DNA of 64,000 nt. Origin: an uncultured Candidatus Saccharibacteria bacterium (GTDB lineage Bacteria; Patescibacteriota; Minisyncoccia; Phycocordibacterales; UBA2100). The translations under genes and the position numbers were made by a program. The stretch is from the NCBI GenBank assembly GCA_964654205.1, contig CAZZHR010000002.1, positions 65,800 through 129,799 of the forward strand. Reading direction: 5' to 3'. The stretch's first letter is position 1, and every line of letters starts with the position of its first letter. The notes beneath the pieces were generated by a model that saw only the letters and a program-made list of their open reading frames with translations, ran no database searches and had not been told where the DNA came from. Positions 13,101 to 62,697 of this stretch are shown in pieces.

Positions 13101-14242
13101 GTGAACGCTGTGGAAGTTGCAACCCCGACGAGATAAAAATTACTGCCACTACTCTGTGCACCAGCTGTCACTTCCCAATACCATTTACCACTCGTGACAC
13201 CAATAATTGAGAGTGCCGTAAGAAAATTCCCAGCACTATGAGTCATACTCAAGTTGCCTTGAGAAAGAGTCAGCGAAGAGTTTTTGTAAATCGAGTTAAG
13301 TGTCGCAAACGCGTTCGTCGGGGTGTCGATGACTTGGTCGGTTGCGTCGAGGTTGTTGGCGGTCCAGTTGTTGCCGTTGCCGGATGTGTCGGTGCCAAGC
13401 GCCGCACTGTTGCCAAAGGCGAGCTTGAAGCCATTTGTCCCATACGTGCCCGTGTACGACTTCGGCCGCCAGTATCCATTGGCGTCGTACTCGCCGAAAG
13501 AGGTGGGCGTGAGCGCCTGCCCGTCGACAAAATGTAGGTCGGAGAGGTAGACATCAATCGAGCAACATGCACCCCCTTGTTGCTGACCGATACGATTGTT
13601 CGCATTGGCGAGCGCGAATTGGTACTCAGCGTTTTGTGCGGGATAATTCGCAGCGTCAAACGCCGTAATCTGCATCCCATCGATGTACATCTTCACTCTA
13701 TTCGCTGCAGTCGCATCTGTCGTGTCCCACACAACTACGACATGCATCCATTTTGATGGATCGCGAAAAAGTGCCGAGCTGCGAAGTTCGGCGGAAGTAG
13801 CCCCGCCGAAGGCGAAACTCAGGTTGTCCGCTGCAGCGCCGCCCGCCCCGAATTCAAGCCACGAAGAATTGCTCGACGAACCATCGTAGCCGGCAACTAT
13901 CGTTTGTCTCGTCCCCAAATTCCCCCTTTTTATCCACGTAGATATCGTTCCCTTCTTACGGTCAGCGGGTGCACCGGAGAATGTCTTGCTTAGGTTTGCA
14001 CTGTCATCGTCGTTGAAGCGAGCGCTGTTCGCGATCGTGTACGCCGCCTCCGCCTGCGGGAGTGTGAGAAGCGCAAACTGCGCGCCAAACCACGCCAGCG
14101 CGACAATCGCCGCCACAACCACCCGCCACCTCCACAGCCCGTTCAAAGCGTTCAAGGAGGCGTGCAAGGGGCGCCCTTGCACATGTGCAAGGGCGCCCCT
14201 TGCGCCGGAGATTTTGAGAAACTTGGTGAAGAGATTACTCAT
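10115..14242 (-). CDS. giant (1375 aa) signal-anchored surface protein: LamG, SPRY, six 45-aa repeats, LamG, plus three copies of a phage-structural-protein-like module
   Basis: One uninterrupted ORF with an N-terminal TM (VVVAAIVALAWFGAQFALL). Its domain signatures are listed as separate features. Its start forms an ATGA overlap with the RAYT stop. Confidence 0.9.
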   Translation of the reverse strand: MSNLFTKFLKISGARGALAHVQGRPLHASLNALNGLWRWRVVVAAIVALAWFGAQFALLTLPQAEAAYTIANSARFNDDDSANLSKTFSGAPADRKKGTISTWIKRGNLGTRQTIVAGYDGSSSNSSWLEFGAGGAAADNLSFAFGGATSAELRSSALFRDPSKWMHVVVVWDTTDATAANRVKMYIDGMQITAFDAANYPAQNAEYQFALANANNRIGQQQGGACCSIDVYLSDLHFVDGQALTPTSFGEYDANGYWRPKSYTGTYGTNGFKLAFGNSAALGTDTSGNGNNWTANNLDATDQVIDTPTNAFATLNSIYKNSSLTLSQGNLSMTHSAGNFLTALSIIGVTSGKWYWEVTAGAQSSGSNFYLVGVATSTAFTPMTLGAFPGGSSANGGISYYGHDGTTYNGGTNAAYGNTFTTNDVVGVALDLDNKKIYFSKNGTWQNSGDPVGGTGAAATLSGADPVFPSLAVYTGASASINFGQPGTTTTTHYSAAGGYFRYEPPSGFKALSTANLPEPDVVVPKNYFDAIAYAGTGAAKSVYQTGTSTTVTGFSPDLVWIKNRTDASTNHALFDALRGVQAWLSSNLTAGEDVDDTESLTSYDDNGFSLGSGASSANVNTSGKNYISWLWKETAEAGFDIVSYKGTGKSRTVSHSLGKAPDFMLVKEVRGDWAQTSNSLTISGINTPALAALSATRVAYVDFGNASLRAYDLSSSNWSLTGSGLSISGIGSPSLATMLSSRVAFIDSGNDDLRAYDFNGSTWSLTGNELNISGVGSPALAGLLSDRIAFIDGTNDDLRAYDFDGTNWTLTGNELNISGITLPSLAALSASRVALYDYSGTKQLRAYDFDGTNWSQVGNSLTIESSGGSTGMAALGRNRVAFVDSTTNELRVYAFDGTDWREVADGSGIVDGTTPNPAVAALSATSVAIADQGSAMLRSYTQASGSGDWAVYHSSNTSAPATDYLLLNSTAATADDATYWNDTAPTASAFTVGTNADVNKGGAAHFDGTNDYLTRGANLTDVVDGKRLTVSFWVNITGADSTNQTIAATGDLGTGFYIVRTAGTQVIQVVGLDASNNFDMILNSSTQTLASSGWVHYLFSVDLNTGSAWVYRNDVSDFNSGGSTLTNDTIDWTRGNFAVGAEPDAGFKLTGDIKDLWIKFGTSLDLSVEANRRFFIDANGEPVPVIGVGSTLVPDVYFSGTSDNWHINRGRGGAFTENGALTDSSSTPGGVGGGSEYAAYLFASTTGMSAFGSYTGNGSTDGPFVYTGFKPRFVMLKPAVGTTGSWWMLDTTRNTYNPISGVLGADGSSQESAPADVIDSLANGFKLRTTFLNTSGDTMVYAAFAEQPFKYSAAPAATSNSFVQALALMLGMEI
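10748..11236 (-). other. second LamG/concanavalin-like (Laminin_G_3-type) domain, aa ~1003-1165
   Basis: AAHFDGTNDYL...LTVSFWVN...GWVHYLFSVDLNTGSAWVYRND...FAVGAE fits the Laminin_G_3 pattern. Confidence 0.65.
11408..12217 (-). repeat. six tandem in-frame ~135-bp (45-aa) repeats, likely a beta-propeller
   Basis: Unit consensus LRAYDFDGTNW(S/T)LTGNELNISG(I/V)GSPSLAALSxxRVAFxDxxNDx. The GAAATCRTAYGCGCGCA motif recurs about every 135 nt on the plus strand. Confidence 0.85.
12788..13345 (-). other. SPRY/B30.2-like domain, aa ~300-485
   Basis: The TSGKWYWEV signature, then VVGVALDLDNKKIYFSKNG and FPSLAVYTGASASINFG, match the SPRY pattern. Confidence 0.7.
13508..14035 (-). other. first LamG/concanavalin-like domain, aa ~70-245
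   Basis: GTISTWIKR...WMHVVVVWDTT...VKMYIDG...SDLHFVDGQAL fits the Laminin_G_3 pattern. Confidence 0.65.
14163..14204. repeat. REP-like palindrome doublet: TGCAAGGGGCGCCCTTGCA-CATG-TGCAAGGGCGCCCCTTGCg
   Basis: Two 19-nt near-palindromes (8-bp stems) in inverted orientation form a 42-nt palindrome. It lies within codons 13-27 of the 1375-aa ORF, 35 nt downstream of the RAYT stop. Confidence 0.85.
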
Positions 14243-14901
14243 ACTTCGTCGAGCATTAATTCTCGGACTGTCGATTTCCGTGCGACGATGTCGTCGAAAG
14301 CGTCTTCAACGAAACGCTGGTACTCGCGCGCACTCTTGAAGTGCTCAAGGATTGTTGCCGTATCACACAATCCCCCGGTATCTGGCGAGAGGTACTCGGC
14401 ATAGCTACTATGCGGCCACTTTCGAGCGTCTCGCACAAGCTTCGCCACTTGGGGATTCACATGAATATAGGCCGAGAGGTGTTTGAGTTGCGTATCGTCT
14501 ACCACATGCACGGCCTTGATGCGATCCTGAAATACATGTCCCACATGATCGTACTTGCGATTGAAGTACATCGAGTAGCTCGTCAGTAGTTTCAGAAAAA
14601 GTTTACTAATCGATACATCTTTGTTCTGTCGTATGAGAAAATGGAAATGATTAGGCATAAGACAGTACACAGCAATCGAGAATGCATCTCTTTCGAATGG
14701 CTCGATGCGAATCTGGACGCGCTTCCCGCCGGTGTGCAAGGGCGCCCCTTGCACATCGCGACCGAGAGAGCGCATAAGTCGGTCTAGGAAAACTCGTGCA
14801 TCCTCATCATCTCGAAGGATGTCCATCTTGCCATTGCCGCGGCTGAAGAGGTGGTACCACTCTCCTGTCGAGAACTCTTTGTAGTCGCGTGAATTTGTCA
14901 T
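14239..14901 (-). CDS. REP-associated tyrosine transposase (RAYT) / IS200-like Y1 transposase homolog
   Basis: WYHLFSRGN, the HUH motif CLMPNHFHFLI, GHVFQDR and YIHVNP (catalytic Tyr region). There is no second IS gene. Confidence 0.85.
   Translation of the reverse strand: MTNSRDYKEFSTGEWYHLFSRGNGKMDILRDDEDARVFLDRLMRSLGRDVQGAPLHTGGKRVQIRIEPFERDAFSIAVYCLMPNHFHFLIRQNKDVSISKLFLKLLTSYSMYFNRKYDHVGHVFQDRIKAVHVVDDTQLKHLSAYIHVNPQVAKLVRDARKWPHSSYAEYLSPDTGGLCDTATILEHFKSAREYQRFVEDAFDDIVARKSTVRELMLDEV
14735..14753. repeat. third copy of the REP-like palindrome, inside the RAYT ORF and in frame
   Basis: TGCAAGGGCGCCCCTTGCA on the plus strand. It encodes VQGAPLH between the N-terminal strand and the HUH motif. 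Confidence 0.85.
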
Positions 14902-14911
14902 ACTCGATTAG

Positions 14912-17900
14912 TCATCTAAAGCCCGTGGCAGCCGCGCCGAATACGACGAGCGAGCTGGTCGCATTGGTCGCGACAAATGAGACGAGGTCACATTGGTTGG
15001 CCGTCGTGGTGAGTGTCGGTGCGCTTCCACCCTGCCAGCGCACGACCGCTGGCCAGGTCAGTGTGCGGCTTCCCGTGCCGTCTTGGCACACCACGAGACG
15101 GAGGATTTGCCCCGCGATGAAATTGGAGAATGTAATCGTGCGGTTGCCGCCGAGTGTCACCTTCTGCTGGTTGCCTTCAAGCCAGTTGATAGCCACGGTC
15201 GCGCCGTCGGAGAGACTCCTTTCCACCGTGGTGATAGCGCCACCCGCACCCACCGCAAATTTCGCAAACGGCGTCGATGTACCCACACCCACGTTGCCGT
15301 TGGCGTTGATGACAAAGAGGGACTGCGCTGTGGTGGAAGCGACCTGTATGAAGTTGGTCGAGCTATCCTGCGTCTCTATCGTGAGCTTGGCCGCAGGGGT
15401 CGTGGTGCCGATTCCTGCCGCTGTCTCTACATAGAGCTTGCCCGCTCCAGTCGGCGACGTGGGGCAGCCGGATGCGCAGACAAGGAGGTTGTCGTCGGAG
15501 AGCAGAATGTTTTTGTTGGACGTGTGTATCGTAAGGTCGCCAGTCGAGTCCACTTGGAGCGAGGCGACCGTGGAATCATTGTACGAAATCGCTACCTGAG
15601 GATTCGCCGCTGCAGCCGTCACCGAGAACTTGCGGTACGGCGATGTGGTGCCGACACCGAAGAATCCGGCACTCGTGGCGCGCATCACCTCGGTGAGCGC
15701 GCCACTTTGCAGTGTCGAGAACACGAGGTCGCCCTTCCCGAGCCCGCCGAAGTTCTGTTGCAAGATGCTCGTGATTGCAGAAGTCGTCGTACCCGTGCCG
15801 GTGACATCGAGCGCGCGGAATGAGAGCCGCGATGCGGTCGATGTCGCGCTCGCCGCATTGGTGAGGTAGAGCTGGTCGGCGGTCGCGCCGGAAGATGTGT
15901 TGTAGACATCGAGCTTCGTGCCCGGCGTCGTCGTACCGATGCCGACATTGCCCGTGCTGGTGATGCGCATTCGCTCTTGGCTCGACTCATATCCACCAGT
16001 CCTAAACTGAATACTGTCGGAGCCGCCTGATGCAACATTCCCGTTGGTAAAGAGCACCAGACTAGTATTCGAACCGAAACTCGTGTTTCCGCCGAGACCG
16101 TATCCGACACCAGACCCGTACGCACGGAAGTAGCCTGTCGCAGTATCGCTATGTACAGTGTATGTGCTCTGACCATTGCTATTTGCATTCGTCACCGTGA
16201 CCCCGTCGACGCTCGCTACATTGCTGTACACAGTGAGTTTTGTAGACGGAGTCGTCGTCCCTACCCCCACGTTGCCGGTGTTTGTCACCGCAAAGAGCGA
16301 GCTCGTCGCGCTCGCGGTCGAGCTCGCTATCTCGAAGAGCATCGTATTGGTCTCGCCCGACAGTGCGTGCACTGAGAGCTTAGCCCACGGCGACGACGTG
16401 CCGATACCGAAGCGCGCATTGACCGTATCCCACGTGAGCGTACTCGACGCCGCCATCACGCCGCCGTAGTTGAATTGTATGTTGCCGTTGCCGCCTGCCG
16501 GAGCCGAGCCGCCGGATGCGAGGAGGGAGCCGGAGAAGTATGTGTAGACTGCCGAACCATCGACAGCTGTACCCGTTGAAAGCACCGCTGCTTCGAGATA
16601 GTCGGATGTTCCATTCATGTCGACAATGGTGGTTACTTGCGCCGCATCTGCACCACCCGATCGATAGGGACCGTTTGCTATCGCGACACCGTTCTTACGG
16701 ACAGCTGCCTGACAGTTGTTTGTGGTATTTGTACATCCAACAGACGCGACAACGATATACTTGCCGGCTACCGTAGGTGTGAAGCGGTTGGTCGTTAGGT
16801 CAAAATTGTTGTTGGTATCGTAAGTTTCAGTCGTCCAATCGACCACAAGTACCGTATCGCTCACAGTGGTTGTCGCCGACCCATTGCGATGCACATGGAA
16901 CGCTACCGTAGAAGAAGCGGTTCCAACCGTGCGGTTCGTGTAGACCTTGACCGCGAATCCGCCTGCGCCGCCTGCGCCGCCTGCGCCTCCAGTGCCCGCA
17001 TTTCCAGCGCTACCCCCGGAGCCAACGGTGAAATAGAAAGTCCCCGTCGGACTGCCTACAAGCTCGTACGCGTATCCTCCGCCTCCACCTCCGCCTCCAC
17101 TCCATACGTTGTTGAGATCATTGATTCCGCCGCCAGCCCCTCCTCCTCCGAACGCGTTGCCTGCGCCGCCTGCTGCCGTAGTACCCGCTCCGCCACCCCC
17201 ACCGCGGGCACCATTGCCCCCCGCTCCTCCCACTGCGTACAGATCTTGCGTCTCCCCACCATCCGCATCAATACCAAGCGTGAGTCCGCCTGCACCACCA
17301 ACGAGATTTACTTCGCCACCGGAGCCAGAACCGCCAGATGCCGCAGGCCCATTGGAGCCAGACCCACCGCCTCCGCCCGTCGCACTTAAGTGCGGAGAGG
17401 AGCATGCGACAGAATTGCTTCCGAAGCATGTCGTACCTCCTACGCCACCATTGCCGCCGTTGCCTCCACCGCCACCCCCTCCACCGCCGCCCCAAACCTC
17501 CACTTCTATATATGACGTATCGCTCGGGAGCGTGAGCGTGCCACCGGAGAAGCTCGGTGCGCTGCCGGGGTCTCCGGTGAAGACCACCGACGAGGTTCCC
17601 ACAGTGGAAGTCGCGTATGTTCCTATGAGCGTGTTGCCACCACCTCCGCCTCCACTCGAGCCGCTCCCCGTCCCCGCACACTGTCCGCTCGGGAGCAGGA
17701 AGCAGCCGCTCGTGAGTTGGACGCCACCCGCAAAGGTGGATGTTGCCGAGCCGGTGATATTGAGGAGTGTTGATTGAATGCCGCCAGAGAATGTTGTGGT
17801 GGAAGGCGACCCAAACGTCGCTGCGCCGGTGGATGCCGAGAACGAGAGCGCGGCTACCGTAGAAGTCGACGAGTGCGTCGAGGTGGCGAGGTAGAAGGTG

Positions 17901-20900
17901 CTGCCGATGTTGCGGAGTGTCCAGAGATTGCTGCCGAGCCCGTCCGAGAGCGCGAGCTGCGGACCTGTCGAGCTCGCGACCGTAAGAATATGGTACGGTG
18001 TCGTCGTACCGATGCCGAACGTACCGTTGAAATAGCCGAGACCGTTGTCGAGAATGCGGAAGCGCGTCGTCGAGGCGGAGTCGAAGAATTCCGTGAGTAT
18101 GCCCGTGCCCGTCCCAGATCCCTGCACTGAGAGCTTAGCCCACGGTGACGTGGTGCCGATTCCGACGTTGCCCGTCGAACCCTGAATGAGCATTCTCGTC
18201 GCGTAACTCCCGGCCGTTGCGTTGGCCTTGAAATGGAGGTCGCCATTGTTGCCCGTCTGCCCTATCTCCGCCCAGCCCGTGCCAGTACCCGCGCCGCCGG
18301 TCGTGAATATCATGCTGCCGACGTTGCCTGTACCGGCTCTGTTGAGGAAGAGTCGGAAGTCGCCCGACGTGTCAAAGGCCGCACTCGTACCGAAGACGTC
18401 GAGCTTACTCCCCGGCGTCGTCGTACCGATTCCCACGCTGCCGGTGCTCTTTACCGCCAAAAGGTCACCGCCGGATCCGCTCGATGAGTTGAGCTGCAAG
18501 AGGTCCGCGCTGGAACCGGTATGAAGACTTCCAACGATGACGGGCTTCGCGATGTCGTGCTCGTTGTAGATGTTGAAGATACCTGTAAAGGTCGGGGAGG
18601 TTTTGCCAAAACCGATCTCCCCCGTGGGACTGACGATGAAGGCGTTGACGCCGTCGGTCCTGTTCTGGAAGAAGAGCGCCCCAGCAGGAGTATTGCCGCT
18701 ATCCCCCGCGAGGAAGCCCCATTTCTTACCGCCGGAGTCCGTATTCTGGAGATTGAACCACGGATCGCTGCCGCTCACATGGAACTTCGCGTCGCTTGAA
18801 GCTGCGCCCACGCCGAGCAGACCCTGCACGAGTAGGTTACCTGTCGTCGTCGCGCCGCCTGAGATCGTGAGGCCGCCCGCCTGTGTGCCGTCGCCGATGG
18901 TGGAACTTGCTGTGACACCGAGGCCGCCAGTTACAGCGAGTGTGGTCCACGGACTTACGTTGCCGATACCGACACTTCCACCACCGCTTTGAAGGACGAG
19001 ATTATTCCATGCACCGGCACCGCTGCTCTGTGCGCTGAGTCCAAAATAAGTATTGCCCGTGCTCGCGCCCGACGCTACAAAGAGCACCGAACCGGCTGAA
19101 CCAGAGACCCAATCGCTCGTCGTTATCGCAAGTTGTGAAGGCGCATTACCGCCAGTAATTTGCAACTTACCGTTGGTCGGACTCGCCGTGCCGATACCGA
19201 AGTTGCCGCTGATGCGGTCGACGAAGACGAGCGGCGAGGAGGTACCGACGGTAAAGAGCGAGGTCGATGGCGGCGTCGATGTGCCGACGGCGAGACCGCC
19301 GGAGGCGATTGTGCTCGTCGCCGTCGTCGAAGTGGCGACGAAATATGAAGCGTCGACGAATGACGTAAAGCGAGCATTGCCACTAACGTGAAGCTTATAG
19401 GTGGGAGAGGTATTACCTATACCTACAGAGCCAGCTGTATTGAGGAACAATAAGTCTGTCGCCGCGGCGCCCGTGCTGATGGAAAATCCAGAGCTATCGT
19501 TACCACTGATTCCGACTTTCCATTCTGGAGTCGTACCGCTTCTGACAAAGCTGACATTCGGTGCCACATTTCCGTTTATCAAAATTCCTTGATACGTCGT
19601 TCCTGCAGTCACATGGAGTGGCTGCTGCGGATTTGTTGTTCCAATTCCAACCCGACCGCTTGGGTTCCAAATGCCGGAGCCCGGGAAGAATGCGGTGCCA
19701 GAGACAGAGAGCGCGGTTGAGGACGCATACGGGAACGTGGACGCTGCTGTGGTAGAAGTCGCAGTGAAGATTGGCGCGGTGATGGTGTTGTATGCGGTGA
19801 GTGCGCCGCGCAGGAGTGAGCTGCCCGCGACTGAGAGGTTTCCGCTTGAGTCGATGGTCGTCGTCGCGCTGCCGCCGAAGTACGCAGTGCCAAAGTTGGA
19901 GAAGTTAGTACTCGACGCATTCCCCGAGAATATCTGGAGCGCCGTCCAGTTGTTGGAGACACTTGTGTCCACGGAGCCCCCACCGCCCGTGATACAAGCA
20001 CCGTCTACGGCAAAGCATCCGTCGGCGAGGTTTATTCCATTGGCAAATGTGGTAGTAGCCGAGCCGGTAAAGGTAATATCGCTCAGCGTAGTCCCAGAAA
20101 GGGTACCGCCCGTAATCGTCGAGTCGGAGATATCGACGCTGCTGAGCTGATCGATTTTGTTTGTGTGCGCGACCGTCTGATACACATTGGTAATACTTGC
20201 CGACTGCGCTGTAGAGACACCGGCGACGAGGCTTGTGAGTCGCTGTTCCACGGCTGCGATCCGCGTATCGAGGTCGGCATCCGTGATGCCGCCGACAGAT
20301 GCAACTATGCGCTCGGTCTCGACGATACGTTCAACGACTCGTTCGTTTGTCACCACAGTCGATGTGCTCACAACAACAGGCGTTTGCTGCGATTGCGCTA
20401 CGATAACCTGTGCGCGTTCATACGGATCCATCGTGTCGATGAATCCCGCATCGAGCGGTGTAAGTGCGAGCGAGTTCGTCGCGTCACTCGGGAACACGAT
20501 GTTGTAGACGAACGTGTCGACGCTCGTGTTGACTGCCTTCGCGATGGTGCGCAGCGCATCAGGGAAGAAAGAAAGTGTCGCGCTCGATACTTGTGCGAGC
20601 GCGACCTCGGGATTCTCAACCGCATAGTACGTCGCATCACTCGCCGCGCGCACCGCGCGCGTCGCCACTTCATCAACTCGTACGAGCGACTGCGCGACGC
20701 TCGCCGCCATCTCGCGCGTAGTCTCCGCTGCAAACCGCGCATAGGCTGGGTCGACAAACGCATACGTGCCAAATGTCATGGTGAACGCAACGAGCATCGC
20801 GACAAACTTCTGCAGAAACTCCGTCGCGGGAGAAATCGTGTACACCGGCACGTGCACATGTGCGTGACTCAAAGTACGAGCAACCGCCTCGTGCACGCCC

Positions 20901-21349
20901 GACGGCGCCGCTGCGATAGACGGCATCGCGTGAGCGACCTTCGCGCTCTGCGCCACCGCCGCAGCCTTCAATTTTTCCTGCACATGCTTCGCGTGCGCCG
21001 CCAACGTCTTCGTCACAGGTATTTGTCCGCTCACAGAAAGGGCGCTCTCGACACTCTTTACACTTTCAGATTTCAACTTTATATCTTGTGGCTTATTCTC
21101 CACCCCGTGATATTCACGCACCCGTTCATCCGACAGCTGCTCCCTGCGGATGGTTTTCGCATGCTCTTGCTCCACGAGGTATTTTTGGAGCGAGCCCTCA
21201 TCGACGTACCAGTTCTTGCCGATTCTTCTACCGCGAAGCCTTCCATCACGGCAAAGACGAGCGATGTAGTCGCGAGAGAGCCCTGCACTGGATGAAGCAT
21301 CCCCGGCCGAGAGGTGCTTCTGCCCGTCGAAATATATTTCGTTGCTCAT
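14912..21349 (-). CDS. giant (2145 aa from ATG 21349) membrane protein: cytoplasmic excisionase-type HTH, one TM, then an ectodomain of GIGTTxP repeats, a glycine-rich domain and a C1q-like domain
   Basis: One uninterrupted ORF. Modules are listed separately. I prefer ATG 21349 (MSNEIYFDG) over GTG 21430 because the paralogous module in the next gene starts at the same relative position. Confidence 0.9.
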   Translation of the reverse strand: MSNEIYFDGQKHLSAGDASSSAGLSRDYIARLCRDGRLRGRRIGKNWYVDEGSLQKYLVEQEHAKTIRREQLSDERVREYHGVENKPQDIKLKSESVKSVESALSVSGQIPVTKTLAAHAKHVQEKLKAAAVAQSAKVAHAMPSIAAAPSGVHEAVARTLSHAHVHVPVYTISPATEFLQKFVAMLVAFTMTFGTYAFVDPAYARFAAETTREMAASVAQSLVRVDEVATRAVRAASDATYYAVENPEVALAQVSSATLSFFPDALRTIAKAVNTSVDTFVYNIVFPSDATNSLALTPLDAGFIDTMDPYERAQVIVAQSQQTPVVVSTSTVVTNERVVERIVETERIVASVGGITDADLDTRIAAVEQRLTSLVAGVSTAQSASITNVYQTVAHTNKIDQLSSVDISDSTITGGTLSGTTLSDITFTGSATTTFANGINLADGCFAVDGACITGGGGSVDTSVSNNWTALQIFSGNASSTNFSNFGTAYFGGSATTTIDSSGNLSVAGSSLLRGALTAYNTITAPIFTATSTTAASTFPYASSTALSVSGTAFFPGSGIWNPSGRVGIGTTNPQQPLHVTAGTTYQGILINGNVAPNVSFVRSGTTPEWKVGISGNDSSGFSISTGAAATDLLFLNTAGSVGIGNTSPTYKLHVSGNARFTSFVDASYFVATSTTATSTIASGGLAVGTSTPPSTSLFTVGTSSPLVFVDRISGNFGIGTASPTNGKLQITGGNAPSQLAITTSDWVSGSAGSVLFVASGASTGNTYFGLSAQSSGAGAWNNLVLQSGGGSVGIGNVSPWTTLAVTGGLGVTASSTIGDGTQAGGLTISGGATTTGNLLVQGLLGVGAASSDAKFHVSGSDPWFNLQNTDSGGKKWGFLAGDSGNTPAGALFFQNRTDGVNAFIVSPTGEIGFGKTSPTFTGIFNIYNEHDIAKPVIVGSLHTGSSADLLQLNSSSGSGGDLLAVKSTGSVGIGTTTPGSKLDVFGTSAAFDTSGDFRLFLNRAGTGNVGSMIFTTGGAGTGTGWAEIGQTGNNGDLHFKANATAGSYATRMLIQGSTGNVGIGTTSPWAKLSVQGSGTGTGILTEFFDSASTTRFRILDNGLGYFNGTFGIGTTTPYHILTVASSTGPQLALSDGLGSNLWTLRNIGSTFYLATSTHSSTSTVAALSFSASTGAATFGSPSTTTFSGGIQSTLLNITGSATSTFAGGVQLTSGCFLLPSGQCAGTGSGSSGGGGGGNTLIGTYATSTVGTSSVVFTGDPGSAPSFSGGTLTLPSDTSYIEVEVWGGGGGGGGGGNGGNGGVGGTTCFGSNSVACSSPHLSATGGGGGSGSNGPAASGGSGSGGEVNLVGGAGGLTLGIDADGGETQDLYAVGGAGGNGARGGGGGAGTTAAGGAGNAFGGGGAGGGINDLNNVWSGGGGGGGGYAYELVGSPTGTFYFTVGSGGSAGNAGTGGAGGAGGAGGFAVKVYTNRTVGTASSTVAFHVHRNGSATTTVSDTVLVVDWTTETYDTNNNFDLTTNRFTPTVAGKYIVVASVGCTNTTNNCQAAVRKNGVAIANGPYRSGGADAAQVTTIVDMNGTSDYLEAAVLSTGTAVDGSAVYTYFSGSLLASGGSAPAGGNGNIQFNYGGVMAASSTLTWDTVNARFGIGTSSPWAKLSVHALSGETNTMLFEIASSTASATSSLFAVTNTGNVGVGTTTPSTKLTVYSNVASVDGVTVTNANSNGQSTYTVHSDTATGYFRAYGSGVGYGLGGNTSFGSNTSLVLFTNGNVASGGSDSIQFRTGGYESSQERMRITSTGNVGIGTTTPGTKLDVYNTSSGATADQLYLTNAASATSTASRLSFRALDVTGTGTTTSAITSILQQNFGGLGKGDLVFSTLQSGALTEVMRATSAGFFGVGTTSPYRKFSVTAAAANPQVAISYNDSTVASLQVDSTGDLTIHTSNKNILLSDDNLLVCASGCPTSPTGAGKLYVETAAGIGTTTPAAKLTIETQDSSTNFIQVASTTAQSLFVINANGNVGVGTSTPFAKFAVGAGGAITTVERSLSDGATVAINWLEGNQQKVTLGGNRTITFSNFIAGQILRLVVCQDGTGSRTLTWPAVVRWQGGSAPTLTTTANQCDLVSFVATNATSSLVVFGAAATGFR
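16517..16906 (-). other. C1q/TNF-like jelly-roll domain (130 aa)
   Basis: VAFHVHRNG...FDLTTNRFTPTVAGKYIVVASV...AAVRKNGVAIANG...VDMNGTSDYLEAAV...YTYFSGSLLA follows the C1q globular-domain pattern (F.A...F...G.FT.P..G.Y.F...KNG...L..GD.V...F.G.LL). Confidence 0.6.
16940..17515 (-). other. glycine-rich domain of the type seen in phage minor-tail / ALK-like Gly_rich proteins
   Basis: Opens with IEVEVWGGGGGGGGGGNGGNGG, has internal EVNLVGGAGG and FYFTVGSGGSAGNAGTGGAGG, and closes with GGFAVKVY. Confidence 0.6.
21173..21349 (-). other. excisionase-type (HTH_17-like) module at the N-terminus of the giant protein
   Basis: IYFDGQKHLSAGDASSSAGLSRDYIARLCRDGRLRGRRIGKNWYVDEGSLQKYL fits the pattern of HTH_17, a MerR-superfamily helix-turn-helix (hEaA..lGvs..ti.rl.r.G.l....iG..w.i....l..yl). 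Confidence 0.6.
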
Positions 21350-21650
21350 GAGCGATGATGCCTGTGGCCGGACGCACGATTTATCTAATATTCTACTACT
21401 CTTTTCGCCAATTGGACGTGTATCGGACACTATTACGTGTGGACAAGCCTAAGCAGAATTTGTACCGGACATTTTTTACATTTTTTCCCACAAGTTCGTA
21501 TCAACGCACAAAAAATTCTCCGTTTTTTTGAAAAAAAGCCTCTTCACTACAACCTCTCACCTCTTACCTACCCCCCTCCTCCCGGCCGACTCGGGCATCC
21601 GAGGAGCGACGTAGAGCGGTATTCCGCGCGTGTGTGGCGCAGAAAATGAA

Positions 21651-27786: not shown

Positions 27787-28422
27787 CTATCGTTCTCCCA
27801 AACCGAAGTGCACTCGCAAGGGTTTATCGTACTCGATTGCGTCCGCAATAATGTATCTCACCTCCGTTCGCAGCGATGCGTCTAGCTTCAGAAGCGTTAT
27901 GATTTCTTCACAATCATACGGGTGCACCCATACGCTGTTTTGCAATCGGTGAAAACCAAGTCTCTTTAATATTTCGCGTACACGATCTCGCGTAGAGCGC
28001 CGCGCATGCGGAATGTCGAATATCACGACTCGCCAACGTCCGTCCCATCGACGCGGCCTAGGTATTTCTACGGCCGAAAGCCGGATGCGTTCCGCATGTG
28101 ACTTTCCCCTCTCCGTCAGTATGGGGTAACGTTTGCCCGAGTGCCGCATAAACTCGACCATCCCTTTTTTCTTCAATCTCGAGAGTGTCTCCCGCAGCCT
28201 CTGCGTGGGCTGCGGGGGCAGGATTACATCAAGGTGTTCTCTTTTGATGAGCGCAGCGACTTTCGGCGCCATCACCGCTACCGTGAGAATTCCTCCGAGA
28301 GCGAGCGTACCTATCACAGCTCTTTCTATCGATCCGCGTCTCAACCGCAGACGAACTCCACTCTCCTGGGATACGCGCGATTCTTGCTCACGCCTCTTCT
28401 GGGTATTCTGTTTTTGCCGCAT
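27787..28422 (-). CDS. PaaX-family-like regulator with a Cas2/VapD-fold C-terminal domain
   Basis: LRETLSRLKKKGMVE (winged-helix-like), then WDGRWRVVIFDIPHARRSTRDRVREILKRLGFHRLQNSVWVHPYD, typical of PaaX C-terminal or Cas2-like domains. ATG 28422 has TACAAT 6 nt upstream. TTG 28437 is an alternative start. Confidence 0.7.
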   Translation of the reverse strand: MRQKQNTQKRREQESRVSQESGVRLRLRRGSIERAVIGTLALGGILTVAVMAPKVAALIKREHLDVILPPQPTQRLRETLSRLKKKGMVEFMRHSGKRYPILTERGKSHAERIRLSAVEIPRPRRWDGRWRVVIFDIPHARRSTRDRVREILKRLGFHRLQNSVWVHPYDCEEIITLLKLDASLRTEVRYIIADAIEYDKPLRVHFGLGER

Positions 28423-28428
28423 GAGTGC

Positions 28429-28434
28429 ATTGTA
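28429..28434 (-). promoter_or_regulatory. -10 box TACAAT 6 nt before ATG 28422 (leaderless geometry)
   Basis: The minus strand reads gtTACAATgcactcATG. Confidence 0.45.
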
Positions 28435-28443
28435 CAAACTTGT

Positions 28444-57272: not shown

Positions 57273-57300
57273 AAGTCGCCGTTTTCTCAAACGGCGACTT
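57273..57300 (-). terminator. hairpin terminator: AAGTCGCCGTT/AACGGCGACTT
   Basis: An 11-bp stem and a 6-nt loop. The minus strand continues GCTTTTGTAAC. Outer GTTAC/GTAAC bases extend the stem. Confidence 0.62.
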
Positions 57301-57370: not shown

Positions 57371-57868
57371 TCACCACGCCGCTCGCGAGCACATCGTTGC
57401 GTAGGTGGTCGAGCGCATGATCGGGCTCGGCCCAGACTCGCTCGCGGTGATGCGAACGAACTCCATAGCATGCGCAATCACCGCTGCGCGAAAATACGCG
57501 TCCACGACCTGCTTGGGCATGCCGATGTCAGCGTAGCTCAGGCCTTTCCGCAGTAGATCGTCGAGTTCGCGCCGCCCATGATGCGGATATTCGCCCGGAA
57601 GGGTCTGCCACCGATAGATGCAGTAGCGTACGCTGAAGATGTTCGCGCGCTTGCGAGCGCTCTTCAGCATCGTCTGCGTCACCCTGGTGCCGTCACCGAG
57701 GGTTACGACATGACCGTCCTCGATGAGCCGCGAGAAATCTTCGATGAAGTCGGGCATCTTCAGTGTAAACCAGTTCGACCTCTCCGTTGGCCAGAACCCT
57801 TCGCCGGTCGAAAGGAGCTCTTCGAGCTCTTTCGTGTTGTGTCGTGGTCGCAGTTTGGTGACGCTCAT
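57371..57868 (-). CDS. hypothetical protein
   Basis: 165 aa. GGGAGG SD 5 nt upstream of the ATG and a terminator downstream. No recognisable motif. Confidence 0.5.
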   Translation of the reverse strand: MSVTKLRPRHNTKELEELLSTGEGFWPTERSNWFTLKMPDFIEDFSRLIEDGHVVTLGDGTRVTQTMLKSARKRANIFSVRYCIYRWQTLPGEYPHHGRRELDDLLRKGLSYADIGMPKQVVDAYFRAAVIAHAMEFVRITASESGPSPIMRSTTYATMCSRAAW

Positions 57869-57927
57869 CTGCGCCTCCCGGTTGCCAATACTCCTACCAT
57901 TATACCACGAATGCCAGACTCAAGCAA

Positions 57928-59136
57928 CTACACCGTATCCTCAACGATGCCCCACTCGCCCTGCCGCTTCCGGCGCACCGCCATCACAGCGCCACCAGTG
58001 AGGAGCGCGAGTGCGACGGGAGCAAACCACCACATGCTCATGCCGAACGATGCGCTTGCGGCAGCGACGGTAGGACGCACCACATCCGTGGCCGATTCTG
58101 GTACCACCTCCACCGCTTCAGTTTCCTCGTCGGGGGCAGCGGGAGAGAGTTGCACGGACGCGCGAGATGCGGGCTTAGGCGCTACACTCGACTGCACCGC
58201 TTGGAATTCGCTCGGCGAGGGCGCTGACGCTGGCGCACTCTGTGTGGGCGCATCACCCGCTTTCATCGCGAGTACGCCGTTGGGGTACGCGAGCTCCGCC
58301 TCCGCTCCTGCAAAAAAGCCGAGTGTTTTCGGAGATACCCGCATCGACGAGCCGGCAAGAATGAAGGAGTTGTCGGGCAGAAGAAATTCGCGCATGAATG
58401 CGCGAATAATCCATGAGGATAGGTCGAGATCTCGATCTGCATGGTTCTCGATTATCACGCTTCCGTCGGACTCAGCGCGAAACGCCAGCCGCGCTGGTTC
58501 TGCTGTGACGACGATACGGTCGCTTGCGGACTCAATGTCCTTAGCAACGGAGAGCACGACGACGTATTTCCCAGGGTACTCATAGTGGTGCGTCACGGTC
58601 GCACCTTCTGCCGTACCCCCATCGCCGAAGTTCCAGTTGAACCGCACATTGTCGAGGGGCTCCTTCTTCTTATTGTAGGCGCGTGCGCGATACGTCGTGT
58701 GCGCACCGACGATGACGACTCTGTCCTCGCCCGCGTCGACGAAGACTGAGGGGTCTGGCGGCGCTACGTATGACGAGACGGGTGCAATCTGCTGTGTCGT
58801 CGCTGTGGTCTGGGTATTCGTCGACTGAGTAGTGGTCGTGCTGGTGTCGGTTCCCGATGTTGTCTGTGCTTGTGATGATCCTCCTGGAGCTTCGCCGACG
58901 GTGATGAGATGTTTAAAATTGTCGAAAGTCGACGGTCCGATGCCATTGACATTGATGATGTCCTCAATTGTCGCGAAGGGGCCGTTCGTCGTCCTGTAAT
59001 CGATTATTCTCTGGGCCAAGGTAGGCCCAATGCCCGGGAGAGTATCGAGCGTTGCGAGGTCCGCCGTGTTGATATTGATGAGCGCATGCGCCGGGAGCGG
59101 CGCAAGAAGCAATATGAGTGCGACAAGCCATCGCAT
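57928..59136 (-). CDS. comEA: ComEA-like DNA receptor: signal peptide, tandem helix-hairpin-helix, Thr-rich linker, PKD domain, lamin-tail-like domain, C-terminal TM
   Basis: INTADLATLDTLPGIGPTLAQRII...NVNGIGPSTF (HhH). FNWNFGDGGTAEGATVTHHYEYPGKYVV (PKD). SVIIENHADRDLDLSSWII (LTD-like). WWFAPVALALLTGGAVMAV (TM). Confidence 0.8.
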   Translation of the reverse strand: MRWLVALILLLAPLPAHALININTADLATLDTLPGIGPTLAQRIIDYRTTNGPFATIEDIINVNGIGPSTFDNFKHLITVGEAPGGSSQAQTTSGTDTSTTTTQSTNTQTTATTQQIAPVSSYVAPPDPSVFVDAGEDRVVIVGAHTTYRARAYNKKKEPLDNVRFNWNFGDGGTAEGATVTHHYEYPGKYVVVLSVAKDIESASDRIVVTAEPARLAFRAESDGSVIIENHADRDLDLSSWIIRAFMREFLLPDNSFILAGSSMRVSPKTLGFFAGAEAELAYPNGVLAMKAGDAPTQSAPASAPSPSEFQAVQSSVAPKPASRASVQLSPAAPDEETEAVEVVPESATDVVRPTVAAASASFGMSMWWFAPVALALLTGGAVMAVRRKRQGEWGIVEDTV

Positions 59137-59143
59137 GCACGGT

Positions 59144-59149
59144 ATTATG
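59144..59149 (-). promoter_or_regulatory. -10 box CATAAT 7 nt before ATG 59136
   Basis: The minus strand reads cgCATAATaccgtgcATG. Confidence 0.4.
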
Positions 59150-59198
59150 CGACACGAATCAATGAGAGAGTGTTTGACTATTGAATCGCTGTGGATTC

Positions 59199-61079
59199 TC
59201 AGTTAACACCCTTGTCCTTTGTATCGCCGCCGTTGACGACGCGCTGGAGCACTTGGTTGGATACTTCAGGATTCGCTTGTGACCGCTCCCCGGCGTGATT
59301 CTGTTGCATCTCTGTAGGCTTTTGATGCGGCGTCGCATGGCGAGGACCGCCCTGAGACTTATCAAAGCGTTGCTCACCCCGGCCATGATTGTGGTGCGGC
59401 TGGTGGTCGCGCGACTGCTGTTTATGCGCCTGCTTATCGCGCAATAGCTCGAGCGGCGAGCGAGCGGGTGCTTGAGCTGATGAAATACCCTCGGCACGTG
59501 CCTTTTCTATCGCGTCGCGAAGAGAGTTCCGTCCCGCCTCGGCGCGAGGTTGGGTTGTCACCTGCTCGCGCCGCGGCTCCACCCTGGCAATGGTCGGCTG
59601 CAGTACGGGCGCAGGCGCAGGTGACGGGCGCGACTCGCGCAATCTCTCTGCCGGAGAGATGCTCGGGGGAGGTGTAAAGCCACCATTCGGCCGATAGTCG
59701 CGCCGTTCTTTTTTTTCTTTTGGCGGCGGGATGAACTCTTCTTGCTTAGATTTTATGAGCTCCTCTATCTTCGCCCTTGGTACGCCGAAGGCGTGTCGCG
59801 ACGACATGATGACATCGTCGCGGTATGTGATGTTGGGCGGCTCAATAGGCGGTATGGTCTCTGCCGAAAAGGGCGGCGAACCCACACCATCTATCATGAG
59901 CGTGAGGTAAATCTGCCCGAGGCCGAGATTCACGAGGTCCTCCGGTTCGAACGTGGGCTGGAAGACAGTCTCGAGAACTTCCGCGTCGAATGGACCCACC
60001 CGGAAGACAATGAGCGTGCCGACGTTGCCGAAGACCGCGTCGCGGACTTCCTCTTCCATCTGCTCGATGTACTGGTTGGCCAGCGTGAGCGCGAGCTTGT
60101 ACTTGCGGGATTCTGAGAGAATATCGGCGAATGCCTCGTTCATCATCGACTGGAATTCGTCGACATAAAAGTAGAAGCGAGGCAGTTTCGCAAGACGCAT
60201 CGGCGGTTCGTCTGCACGCGACATCGCAGCAAGGTAAATCTTGACGGTGAGCGCCGAGCCGAGGAGAGAGGCGTTCGTCTCGCCCATGCGTCCTTTTGAG
60301 AGATTGACGATGAAGATTTTCTTCTCATCCATCACTTTGCGCAAATCGAAGGAAGATTTTGCCTGGCCTACAATGTTGCGAATGAGAGGGTTTGAGACGA
60401 ATTGGCCGATTTTGTTCTGGATTGCCGGCAGAGCTTCGCGTGTGTATGTGTCGGTAAAATTCGCAAATTCCTCCACCCAGAACGCTTTGACGATAGGGTC
60501 TGAAACCTTTTCAAGCACCGCATTGCGATACGTTTTGTTGATGAGCATGCGGTTCACGTCGAGCAGCGTCGAGCCTGGATACTCGAGGAGTGCGAGCAGA
60601 GTGTTTTGCAAGATATACTCCATGCGGGCGCTCCACGCGTCCACCCAGATGCGTTTGAGTGCCCCCATGAGACCGGAGACGACGAGGTGCCGCTTGTCAT
60701 ACCCCACGTCCTCCATCACGTTGAATCCAAGGGGGTATTCGGTATCAAACGGCGCGAAGTAGATGACATCACTGATACGCTCCTGCGGGATGAAATCGAG
60801 GAGCTTTTCGGCGGTCGAGCCGTGGGGGTCGATAAAGGCGATGCCTTCCCCATTTTGAATATCCTGAATCGCCATGTTCTCGAGCATGGTCGATTTGCCC
60901 ATGCCGGTCTTGCCGATAACATAGATATGCTTTCCGCGGTCTATCGCGCGGATACCGAACATTTCCCTCTTTCCCCGCGTGTGCGTCGATGCGAAGTAGG
61001 TGATTCGCCTATCGTCGTCGAACTGGTCAGGGTGGGGCTTGTGCTCGCCTGAAGCGTGACTGTCGTGGTGCTCAGACAT
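59199..61079 (-). CDS. soluble VirD4/TraD/TraG-like (type IV coupling protein-like) P-loop ATPase with a disordered His/Gln-rich C-terminus
   Basis: Walker A VIGKTGMGKST, Walker B FYFYVDEFQ, then LANQY...VGTLIVFRV. No N-terminal TM. The last 190 aa or so are low complexity. Confidence 0.78.
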   Translation of the reverse strand: MSEHHDSHASGEHKPHPDQFDDDRRITYFASTHTRGKREMFGIRAIDRGKHIYVIGKTGMGKSTMLENMAIQDIQNGEGIAFIDPHGSTAEKLLDFIPQERISDVIYFAPFDTEYPLGFNVMEDVGYDKRHLVVSGLMGALKRIWVDAWSARMEYILQNTLLALLEYPGSTLLDVNRMLINKTYRNAVLEKVSDPIVKAFWVEEFANFTDTYTREALPAIQNKIGQFVSNPLIRNIVGQAKSSFDLRKVMDEKKIFIVNLSKGRMGETNASLLGSALTVKIYLAAMSRADEPPMRLAKLPRFYFYVDEFQSMMNEAFADILSESRKYKLALTLANQYIEQMEEEVRDAVFGNVGTLIVFRVGPFDAEVLETVFQPTFEPEDLVNLGLGQIYLTLMIDGVGSPPFSAETIPPIEPPNITYRDDVIMSSRHAFGVPRAKIEELIKSKQEEFIPPPKEKKERRDYRPNGGFTPPPSISPAERLRESRPSPAPAPVLQPTIARVEPRREQVTTQPRAEAGRNSLRDAIEKARAEGISSAQAPARSPLELLRDKQAHKQQSRDHQPHHNHGRGEQRFDKSQGGPRHATPHQKPTEMQQNHAGERSQANPEVSNQVLQRVVNGGDTKDKGVN

Positions 61080-61085
61080 ACGGGA

Positions 61086-61091
61086 AGTATA
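61086..61091 (-). promoter_or_regulatory. -10 box TATACT 6 nt before ATG 61079 (leaderless geometry)
   Basis: The minus strand reads ggggTATACTtcccgtATG. The box lies inside the left arm of the 17-bp inverted repeat. Confidence 0.45.
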
Positions 61092-61194
61092 CCCCGTGAG
61101 ATAGGCGCTCCTCCGGTCTTTAATGCAAATTGGAGCAAAGCAGGATCGACCATGTTTCTAGGCTCACCCCGCACGCATATCTCACGGGGTATAC
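61087..61194. repeat. perfect 17-bp inverted repeat: GTATACCCCGTGAGATA (61087-61103) / TATCTCACGGGGTATAC (61178-61194), 74-nt spacer
   Basis: Read directly. The arms are exact reverse complements. Confidence 0.9.
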
Positions 61195-61195
61195 C

Positions 61196-61222
61196 AAGAA
61201 GCGTCCCTCAGGGACGCTTCTT
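61196..61222 (-). terminator. hairpin at the 3' end of the hydrolase gene: AAGAAGCGTCCC/GGGACGCTTCTT
   Basis: A 12-bp stem and a 3-nt loop that overlap the TAA stop. No clear T-tract. Confidence 0.45.
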
Positions 61223-62489
61223 ATTGCGCCGAGAGCGCCTGTTTCAAGCTGCTGTATCGATTCGCGGGATCCCAGAAGTACCACGAGGTGAGCCCTGCGT
61301 CGTACGTTGCGCGTGTCTGGTCGAGGATGTCTTGCGCGGTATACGTCTTGCCGTAATTAAAATCCTGCAGCCACGGGCGCAGCATCTTGGGGTCATACAC
61401 CGGTTTCTCGTACACTGCCGGCGTCGACGTGCCGATACGCGTAAAGGCGAGCGACGGGACGGTCGTCGTGGGCGCTTTGAGTCGCCGCACCGCTTCGGCC
61501 ATGGATTGGTACACGACTTTGTACGGGTCACTGTTCGGGTCACTCAGTCCTGCAAAGCCCTTGTTGTAGTGCGATGGGTACACCATGGGCGCGATGTAGT
61601 CGAAATATGGAAGCGCGCGCTCGAGCTGTTGGCCGATACCGAGGTCGTCGGTGAGCACGGTCGTGTAGCCAAAGAGGTCTGCGCTCATGACCGGCACGTG
61701 GCCGCCGTGGTGCGCCGTATCAAATCCCTTTACTTGCTTGTGGAGATACGAGAAGAATTTCTCCAGCTCGCCTGCCCGGTCTGTCGAGGGATAGACGATG
61801 TCGCTCATGACGCCGTCGGATGGCCAACGGACGTAATCGTAATTCAGTTCGTCGAAGCCGAGCTCGTAGCTCTCTCGGCTAAGCTCCACAATGTAGTCCC
61901 AGTGCGGCTCCGAATTGACCGCGATAAATGAGAGGCCCTTGTGGTCTTTCCATGGCTCACCGGGCCGCGCCTTCGACTGCACCGCTCGCTCAGGATGCAC
62001 CTTCGACATGAAGGGGTCTTGGAACACCGTGATGCGTCCTATCACGTAGATTCCTTTTTCATGGAGCGTCGCGATGAACTCGCGCATATCGCCCGCTCCG
62101 CACTTGGCGGCATCCCACGCTGGTTTCAATTCCTCACTCTCGGGCTTGAACGCGATGGTACCTGAGTAATCTTTTATATCGATAACGACCGCGTTGAGCT
62201 TCGTCGAGTCCAAGAGTTCTACAAGGGTGTTGCGGAGCGAGGGCGTCCCCACGGCGCACTGCGTCATGTATATCGCGTACATGGGCTCCGGCGCGGCCAC
62301 GTGACTTACGCGCGCCTTCGGAGCCTCGGGAATCACCACCTTCGGCGTACTGGTCGCACCAGCGCGGATAAATTCTGCCGACGGATTAGAGAGAGAAATG
62401 AACACGCCCGCCGCAACGACGGCGGGTGCCGCGATGCCGAGGAAAACGACGCCTATCCTCGACGCGCTCGTTCGTTTAGAGCTGGACAT
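61221..62489 (-). CDS. putative glycoside hydrolase, GHL10/DUF4015-type TIM barrel, signal-anchored
   Basis: LNAVVIDIKDYSG, VIGRITVFQD and GFDELNYDYVRWPSDG fit the DUF4015 pattern. N-terminal TM. Trimmed to MSSSKRT. Confidence 0.7.
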   Translation of the reverse strand: MSSSKRTSASRIGVVFLGIAAPAVVAAGVFISLSNPSAEFIRAGATSTPKVVIPEAPKARVSHVAAPEPMYAIYMTQCAVGTPSLRNTLVELLDSTKLNAVVIDIKDYSGTIAFKPESEELKPAWDAAKCGAGDMREFIATLHEKGIYVIGRITVFQDPFMSKVHPERAVQSKARPGEPWKDHKGLSFIAVNSEPHWDYIVELSRESYELGFDELNYDYVRWPSDGVMSDIVYPSTDRAGELEKFFSYLHKQVKGFDTAHHGGHVPVMSADLFGYTTVLTDDLGIGQQLERALPYFDYIAPMVYPSHYNKGFAGLSDPNSDPYKVVYQSMAEAVRRLKAPTTTVPSLAFTRIGTSTPAVYEKPVYDPKMLRPWLQDFNYGKTYTAQDILDQTRATYDAGLTSWYFWDPANRYSSLKQALSAQ

Positions 62490-62697
62490 GCTCGTGACGC
62501 GGTTGCGAGACGTTCTCGGTTTCTGGTCGGCGCGGATTCTCAATGTGGCCGTACCTCCTGCGCACTACGATGCCGAGCGCGATGACGAAAACGCCAACAG
62601 CAAAGAAAATCCACGTGTCCCAGGTGTTGGGAAAGCCCAAAAAAGGAAGTGCTGCGACGAGGACGCCGGAGAGCATGATGAGCGCATCGAGTGTCAT
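62476..62697 (-). CDS. small two-TM membrane protein
   Basis: MTLDALIMLSGVLVAALPFLGF...IFFAVGVFVIALGIVV. ATG 62697 has TATACT 7 nt upstream. ATG 62724, with an AGGAG SD, is the alternative start. Confidence 0.5.
   Translation of the reverse strand: MTLDALIMLSGVLVAALPFLGFPNTWDTWIFFAVGVFVIALGIVVRRRYGHIENPRRPETENVSQPRHEHVQL

Follow-up and report, generated by a model that had tools for sequence, protein, structure and literature searches.

What does an ATPase of the type IV coupling protein (T4CP) class do beside the gene of an exported surface protein with a ComEA-like head? The question is raised by a locus in a 64,000-nucleotide stretch (the window) of contig CAZZHR010000002.1 from an uncultured Candidatus Saccharibacteria bacterium. 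Region 57371-61222 of the window contains three open reading frames (ORFs), all co-oriented on the minus strand in the ORF list with translations: the ATPase gene, a gene 62 nt downstream of it whose product is here called the partner, and an orphan frame, ORF165. The original prediction, made from the letters alone, had placed the ATPase directly upstream of a ComEA homolog and read the two as a possible DNA-uptake module or, equally, as the remnant of a conjugative element. The placement of both genes is confirmed by their reading frames. Comparison with related genomes shows that the pairing of ATPase and partner is a real conserved two-gene module, that the conserved partner is a scaffold of PKD domain, LTD (lamin tail)-like domain and transmembrane (TM) helix and not ComEA, and that the module is chromosomal, vertically inherited and no conjugative-element remnant. 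A putative role of the module in DNA uptake is plausible.

The association was measured from both of its members. Among 70 species genomes with at least 1.5 kb of sequence downstream of the ATPase gene, a partner lies directly downstream and on the same strand in 31, of which 28 encode the PKD-LTD scaffold and 3 a head plus TM helix only. Starting from the partner, all 45 metagenome loci with at least 2.5 kb upstream of it have the ATPase gene directly upstream. The adjacency is therefore not unique to this genome, and the ATPase locus itself recurs in dozens of species. The two genes are often separated by only -3 to +13 nt, and the larger gaps are insertions of IS200-like genes, of a gene for a 192-aa TM protein, or of one for a second, short LTD-TM-tail protein. 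The pair is kept while its downstream neighbours vary (GT4 glycosyltransferases, SecA and several unnamed gene clusters). What was predicted as a pairing of ATPase and ComEA thus holds as a recurrent co-oriented pair, with the corrections that the partner is a scaffold with interchangeable heads and that the ATPase often occurs without it.

Such adjacency could be inherited gene order without functional coupling. Kaiserbacteria-like genomes indeed share the gene order of the whole region (RsmI, small TM protein, DUF4015, ATPase, partner, epimerase, GT4), and the partner is missing from over half of the species. Against this, the reverse association is complete, the spacing is tight or overlapping, and the pair outlasts changes of both flanks as well as IS200-like insertions between its genes. 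It is also found in a Niyogibacteria locus (L061) with a different upstream context, where a membrane N-domain (see below), ATPase and partner all stand together. We consider mere inheritance of gene order very improbable. Small mobile or selfish genes, of the IS200/REP-associated Y1 transposase-like kind and RelE-like toxin-antitoxin pairs, have entered repeatedly at the edges of the ATPase gene, in L136, L156 and L158 between ATPase and partner and in L004 and L014 upstream, and the pair is still together.

The unit conserved among partner homologues consists of the PKD domain, the LTD-like domain, a stalk, the TM helix and, in the cytoplasm, an EWDIxEE-type tail. The head at the N-terminus varies: among 105 partners it is LTD in 67, helix-hairpin-helix (HhH) in 18 and Big-like in 12. 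ComEA, proposed as the conserved partner, is thus represented by an HhH head in a minority of the family, and it is the scaffold that is conserved instead. At least 22 head changes are required on a rough neighbour-joining tree of the partner core, and the distance between cores with HhH and LTD heads is as low as 0.14 (L083 and L095). This repeated exchange of heads on near-identical PKD-LTD stalks suggests either that the heads are functionally equivalent or that they are under diversifying selection. The tail motif is carried by most partners and is rare elsewhere. Of 116 partner ORFs, 75 close with a TM helix and an ending of the form [WFY]x[IL][IVTEL][EDQ], against 3 among 4014 other ORFs, and two of these three are short LTD-TM-tail proteins that also adjoin the ATPase. 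In the window the TM helix of the partner is followed by RRKRQGEWGIVEDTV, and residues E394, W395 and I397 of its tail are invariant or near-invariant.

The partner of the window carries the HhH variant. Its head is matched by HHH_3 (74.6 bits) and by TIGR00426, the ComEA HhH region (59.6 bits, cut-off 53.1); the full-length ComEA model TIGR01259 is not met (67.5 bits, cut-off 152), only its HhH part being matched. The PKD domain is recognised by PKD_4 (49.6 bits, cut-off 27; E = 4e-13), and Foldseek relates its fold to the PKD domains of the collagenases ColG and ColH with TM-scores of 0.7-0.8, in a tandem Ig-like arrangement. For the second beta-sandwich, LTD (PF00932) is the top Pfam match in 10 of 10 homologous fragments, with scores all below threshold (14.5-33.8 bits, gathering score 34.3; E from 0.046 to 4.6e-8); comparison with true LTD heads by hhalign gives a probability of 65%, and the fold is an Ig-like sandwich. 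This domain is LTD-like and not a confirmed LTD. The signal peptide, tandem HhH, Thr-rich linker, PKD domain and TM helix of the original description stand, and its lamin-tail domain is reduced to an LTD-like one. In the AlphaFold2 (AF2) model, the mean predicted local distance difference test (pLDDT) score is 80; the domains are spaced by disordered linkers, and a disordered stalk precedes the TM helix; in this model the HhH head spans residues 20-80 and the TM helix residues 371-391. With a predicted signal peptide and a C-terminal TM helix, the partner is predicted to be extracytoplasmic and membrane-tethered.

ComEA shares with this protein the membrane-tethered tandem HhH outside the cytoplasm, which in the partner passes TIGR00426. 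It differs in its N-terminal anchor, that of the partner being C-terminal, and the partner has the added PKD and LTD-like domains. The partner gene also lies outside any comE operon with comEC, and orthologous partners swap HhH for LTD or Big-like heads. ComEA is annotated in only 31% of Candidate Phyla Radiation (CPR) genomes, and an alternative DNA-binding mechanism has been suspected by others (PMC6744442). LTDs are typically fused to extracellular nucleases, and deletion of the LTD lowered the activity of ExeM in vitro (PMC6085458).

The ATPase belongs to the coupling-protein/TraD-like class, as had been predicted from its GKTGMGKST and FYFYVDEFQ motifs. It passes the gathering scores of three T4CP Pfam families, though weakly: PF10412 TrwB_AAD_bind (33.9 bits, cut-off 20.5), whose alignment covers residues 50-361, PF02534 T4SS-DNA_transf (27.5 bits, cut-off 20.1) and PF12696 TraG-D_C (24.4 bits, cut-off 22). 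It stays below the NCBIfam equivalog cut-offs for TraD SXT/TOL, CD1115 and CedD (44.8/366, 33.3/647, 33.2/250 and 21.3/600 bits). Among solved structures, its sequence is closest to TrwB (the best PDB match, E = 4e-7) and DotL, with matches confined to the surroundings of the Walker motifs. In the family alignment (A2), G56, G59, G61 and K62 of Walker A and D307 and E308 of Walker B are invariant. The AF2 model of the ATPase, built from homologues 83-96% identical, has a pLDDT of 38, too low for use as a fold; as to an all-alpha domain inserted in the nucleotide-binding domain, residues 121-237 are predicted to be helical.

Two features of the ATPase had been called unusual. The first, its lack of TM helices, is supported: the highest 19-residue Kyte-Doolittle window reaches 1.27 (threshold 1.6), so no TM helix is predicted. 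It is not unusual, since a subclass of coupling proteins is known that lacks a TM domain and works with a separate membrane protein, TraJ of plasmid pIP501 being one of them (PMC7434980). The second, a disordered tail of about 190 residues, is present, and its description as His/Gln/Pro-rich needs correction. The last 190 residues are of low complexity and rich in P (11.6%), R (11.1%), E (9.5%) and Q (8.9%), with 4.2% His in one His/Gln patch. The protein ends in a conserved motif, which in the near clade reads E-V/I-S/P-x-x-x-L-x-x-V/I/L-L (also written E-V-S-x-x-V-L-x-x-V-(V/L)-x-G) and in the clade with the N-domain LKPGExIKF.

The ATPase is a member of a very large and highly conserved Parcubacteria/Paceibacteria family, far more widespread than the partner. 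More than 8000 homologues are 62-93% identical to it and, where named, come from Kaiserbacteria or Paceibacterota; the clusters at 50% identity number 21,081 for E <= 1e-3, of which 5665 reach E <= 1e-30. Relatives bear the names Candidatus Kaiserbacteria, Paceibacterota or Parcubacteria. Among close relatives the core is 83-96% identical. Family members are annotated as 'type IV secretion system DNA-binding domain-containing protein'. They are very probably the same family as the orphan T4CP homologues of a 2025 survey of Patescibacteria, which are near-universal and unlinked to virB4. There, VirD4-type T4CP homologues were found in 2,918 of 3,035 genomes (96%) and VirB4 in 2,417, only 148 of 5,713 T4CP homologues were near virB4, relaxases occurred in only 103 genomes, and the authors raised exaptation of the T4CP homologues (PMC12102498).

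The view that an integrated conjugative element has decayed to this pair has in its favour the T4CP homology and the fact that other transfer genes were not found nearby. It is rejected, and we give it almost no credence. Base composition is uniform along the window without any anomaly, the flanks are housekeeping genes, the identity of the core indicates strong purifying selection, the same locus is found in dozens of species, and nearly every Patescibacteria genome has a member of the family, against the few with relaxases. VirB/Trb, relaxase, ComEC and PilB gave no Pfam match in the 36 of 50 larger window ORFs scanned, in agreement, for the first three, with the original prediction, although this absence is not absolute, since several window ORFs, among them a frame of 2172 aa, match nothing in Pfam. 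No type IV secretion system (T4SS) cluster is present among the recurrent neighbour clusters of 83 ATPase loci, so the ATPase is not confined to complete T4SS clusters. Its neighbours across loci are Mur ligases (MurC/D/E-type), MurI, MurJ, RsmI, DUF4015, GT4, SecDF, SecA, SecY and FtsW/RodA. When ComEC was sought among the polytopic membrane ORFs near the ATPase, these proved to be MurJ, FtsW, SecY, a permease and PMT_2.

A more serious alternative is that the ATPase is the coupling protein of a chromosomal monoderm-type (MPF-FATA-like) T4SS near oriC, the partner being its adhesin or receptor, and that the pair acts in host contact and substrate transfer and not in uptake of free DNA. The class of the ATPase is the one expected, most Patescibacteria genomes have a VirB4-type T4SS, often with its t4cp gene unlinked to virB4 (PMC12102498), Gram-positive T4SSs employ adhesins in place of pili (PMC7434980), and rapid swapping of heads is typical of adhesins. 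However, T4CP homologues are found in about 500 more genomes than VirB4, those near virB4 are few, no T4SS gene was seen in the 83 ATPase loci, and the target of an HhH head is DNA and not a cell surface. In the sole transposon-sequencing (Tn-seq) study of a Patescibacterium, moreover, the T4SS genes proved essential, unlike the T4CP homologue, which was dispensable, and exaptation is the possibility raised by the survey's authors (PMC12102498). We regard this alternative as unlikely, while giving it appreciable weight.

The closest comparison remains with VirD4, TrwB and TraD, with which the ATPase shares the clade assigned by profile, Walker A and B, the RKY...AHQY..Q block and the TraG-D_C region; as in TraD and DotL, its C-terminus is extended by a disordered segment that closes with a conserved motif. 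It differs from VirD4, TrwB and TraD in its low sequence similarity (34 bits to TrwB_AAD_bind), in having no N-terminal TM domain and no linked T4SS, relaxase or oriT, and in its chromosomal housekeeping context.

How a soluble ATPase of this class might reach the membrane is suggested by its architectural variants. In a search with representatives, the family was found to occur in a short form, as in the window, and in a long form, known from many database proteins, in which an N-terminal TM segment and a domain of about 380 aa without known relative are fused to the ATPase. Of 80 species-level genome loci, 21 encode the N-domain in a gene of its own immediately before that of the ATPase; the genes there follow each other as SecD, SecF, Sigma70_r4/HARE-HTH protein, N-domain, ATPase, PGK, RecJ. 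The N-domain has no relative in Pfam or PDB, its sole match being phrog_5156, and it is absent from the window and the near-clade loci by tblastn and HMM (hidden Markov model) searches. No consistent upstream partner takes its place in the near clade, where the position is held by DUF4015, toxin-antitoxin-like genes, pilins and others. The arrangement resembles that of TraJ and TraI of pIP501, where a soluble T4CP relies on a neighbouring membrane protein (PMC7434980), as the split N-domain gene precedes the ATPase gene in the sister lineages here. It differs in that TraI is a small membrane protein in a conjugation operon, whereas in the window a large surface protein, exported and bearing ligand-binding domains, is the neighbour, and for the N-domain of the sister lineages no relative is detectable.

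Several observations concern the genes upstream of the ATPase. The separate N-domain protein of the sister lineages is about 430 aa long, membrane-anchored and in every case encoded just before the ATPase (L057, L060-L061, L063-L066, L068-L070 and L072-L082; e.g. L063:1387-2691), and the Sigma70_r4 plus HARE-HTH protein and SecDF are consistently upstream of its gene. Type IV prepilin-like genes (GFTLIELLVVIAIIG...) stand directly upstream of the ATPase in L034 and L067, which may be chance, CPR genomes being rich in pilin genes. Long-form homologues, with N-domain plus ATPase, occur in the large Bacillus phages G (gp156), CP-51 (gp91; L163:3753-6488), Shanette and JL and in phrog_5156, those of the phages all being annotated as hypothetical. 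A phage origin of the ATPase was considered and rejected, the Bacillus phage homologues being just distant (23-29% identity) and relatives being found in 5 of 2.9 million viral contigs. Likewise rejected was an anti-phage defence ATPase: the PADLOC model mad8 of MADS matches (58.9 bits, E = 1.4e-16), as does HerA, but no defence component adjoins, the neighbours are housekeeping genes, and the MADS preprint assigns mad8 no function.

The recurrent neighbourhood of the ATPase bears on a further alternative, in which it is an FtsK/SpoIIIE-like DNA translocase of the envelope or of division, or another motor tied to cell-wall biogenesis, and the partner merely a co-expressed structural protein associated with the wall. 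Consistently placed among envelope and division genes (those listed above apart from RsmI), near-universal and highly conserved, the ATPase would fit such a role, and its long disordered region, rich in Pro and Gln, is reminiscent of the linker of FtsK. Both proteins belong to the ASCE superfamily, have a long stretch of low complexity and are encoded in a neighbourhood of division and cell-wall genes. Yet FtsK_SpoIIIE gives no Pfam match at E <= 0.01, the T4CP families score best, the order is reversed (motor first, linker last) and there is no gamma domain. This alternative also leaves unexplained why the partner is never found away from the ATPase and why it has its specific cytoplasmic motif. 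We judge it improbable.

The explanation we tentatively favour, while granting it rather less than an even chance, is a receptor-coupled motor: an exapted ATPase of the T4CP class with a dedicated surface receptor, acting in this genome on extracellular DNA. The ATPase would form a hexameric motor, exapted and paired with the surface partner, at the inner face of the membrane, where a fused or adjacent membrane N-domain would hold it in the sister lineages. In the lineage of the window, signals probably pass between it and the partner by way of the partner's TM helix or cytoplasmic tail. The partner head would capture an extracellular ligand, which from the ComEA-type HhH head in this genome would be double-stranded DNA, and capture outside would be coupled to an ATP-driven step inside the cell. 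The DNA would then be handed to a channel encoded elsewhere, possibly ComEC or the chromosomal T4SS of Patescibacteria. There is a conceptual precedent in ComB of Helicobacter and Ced of Crenarchaeota, in which ATPases of the VirB4/VirD4 superfamily drive DNA import; those systems differ in having linked channel subunits, ComB has no T4CP, and similarity between CedD and the ATPase is limited to the P-loop (21.3 bits, cut-off 600).

Several facts weigh against the receptor-coupled motor. ATPases without any partner are found in 39 of the 70 species, which indicates that the core function of the ATPase is independent of it. The DNA-binding HhH head is present on just 18 of the 105 partners, and so frequent an exchange of heads would also be compatible with an adhesin shaped by diversifying selection. 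At least five partners stop at the TM helix without a cytoplasmic tail and still adjoin the ATPase, and the C-terminal motif of the ATPase tracks clade and is the same with or without a partner gene; docking through the tail is therefore not the universal link. Neither the window nor the other gene neighbourhoods inspected yielded ComEC, VirB6 or VirB4. Finally, the T4CP homologue is dispensable by Tn-seq, in an organism of a different class without known partner (PMC12102498).

The remaining features of the locus are collected in Table 1 with those already discussed.

Table 1. Positions of the genes, protein domains and nucleic acid features of the locus in the window (aa, residues of the encoded protein)
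Feature	Position	Strand	Evidence
Terminator-like hairpin, 12-bp stem and T-rich tail, ending the unit before the epimerase gene	57273-57300	-	
ORF165, orphan 165-aa ORF between partner gene and terminator-like hairpin	57371-57868	-	
Partner gene, exported C-terminally anchored surface protein (predicted), 402 aa	57928-59136	-	ORF, profiles, AF2
Partner, cytoplasmic tail KRQGEWGIVEDTV with family motif [ED][WFY]x[IL][IVT][ED][ED]	57931-57963	-	Alignment
Partner, C-terminal TM helix, aa 368-391	57964-58035	-	Hydropathy, AF2
Partner, second beta-sandwich, LTD-like, aa 214-295	58252-58497	-	Pfam, hhalign; AF2 pLDDT >94
Partner, PKD domain, aa 125-213	58498-58764	-	PKD_4; Foldseek
Partner, Thr/Ser/Gln-rich disordered linker, aa 82-120	58777-58893	-	Composition; AF2 pLDDT <50
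Partner, ComEA-type tandem HhH head, aa 19-80	58897-59082	-	HHH_3, TIGR00426; AF2 pLDDT ~96
Partner, signal-peptide-like N-terminus, aa 1-18, ending ...PLPAHA before L	59083-59136	-	Hydropathy 2.19; cleavage site read by eye
ATPase gene, TM-less T4CP-class (VirD4/TraG/TraD-like) P-loop ATPase, 626 aa	59199-61079	-	ORF and Pfam PF10412, PF02534, PF12696
ATPase, disordered C-terminal tail, aa 437-626	59199-59771	-	Composition
ATPase, Walker B FYFYVDEFQ, aa 302-310	60150-60176	-	Sequence
ATPase, Walker A GKTGMGKST, aa 56-64	60888-60914	-	Sequence
MITE-like insertion (~102 nt inserted) in ATPase leader	61087-61194	.	Fold, comparison with L165
Perfect 13-bp hairpin over DUF4015 stop codon	61196-61222	-	

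No terminator lies between the ATPase and partner genes in the window, and a strong terminator-like hairpin stands upstream of RsmI. The hairpin over the DUF4015 stop codon is kept in the closest relative, L165, save for one loop base, and may be a terminator or attenuator between DUF4015 and the ATPase unit. The leader of the ATPase gene carries an insertion resembling a miniature inverted-repeat transposable element (MITE). It has two 21-nt inverted arms that are 95% complementary, with the arm core CCCGTGAGATA and 66 nt between them, and GTATAC duplicated at both ends; it is single-copy in the window, ends 8 nt before the ATPase ATG and is precisely missing from L165. It folds into a long stem (z = -7.9). 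A regulatory RNA in the leader was considered and rejected in favour of this insertion, there being no Rfam match and no conservation in relatives. ORF165 matches no Pfam family, and about 160 related loci contain no homologue of it, so that it is specific to this genome. It is coding-like in its third-position GC content (GC3 0.75), an independent Logan assembly (L164) also has it as a called gene, and it is missing from L165; its membership of the module is doubtful.

Upstream of the ATPase the window contains the DUF4015 gene (61221-62543), the gene of an 82-aa two-TM protein and RsmI, and downstream an epimerase gene followed by a long series of GT4 glycosyltransferases. The remaining window genes are housekeeping genes (pentose-phosphate enzymes, GAPDH, SecA, GatB, signal peptidase and Wzy), together with two giant proteins. 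The latter are encoded on the minus strand at 10115-21430, on either side of an IS200-like Y1 transposase gene (14239-14901); one, of 1375 aa, has DUF7483 and SPRY domains, and the other, of 2172 aa, is the frame without Pfam match mentioned above. A PaaX-like protein with a Cas2-like central domain, for which no CRISPR context was seen, is encoded at 27787-28437, and the gene of a 23S rRNA intervening-sequence protein is located at 9152-9598.

Nearly all Patescibacteria keep one or two orphan coupling-protein ATPases, whose function was left open in the 2025 survey (PMC12102498). One large branch of this family now has a linked surface partner, a tail motif and, in sister lineages, a membrane domain. 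The linkage of ATPase and partner, the tail motif and the fused and split N-domain architectures are not described within the literature searched and are not reported in PMC12102498. Swapping of HhH and LTD heads on one scaffold provides an entry point to what bacterial lamin-tail domains do. An unannotated ATPase is thereby turned into a concrete receptor-coupled-motor hypothesis with defined peptides, domains and gene pairs. Patescibacteria are unable to make nucleotides, and in its boldest form, which we hold to be something of a long shot, the module would be the core of a hitherto unrecognised trans-envelope machine specific to Paceibacteria, in which the EWDIxEE-type tail of the modular surface receptor would link a T4CP-derived motor freed from conjugation to the capture of DNA outside the cell, HhH heads serving directly and LTD heads as the alternative DNA-binding mechanism suspected for CPR, and which would import nucleic acid for nucleotide scavenging independently or upstream of ComEC.

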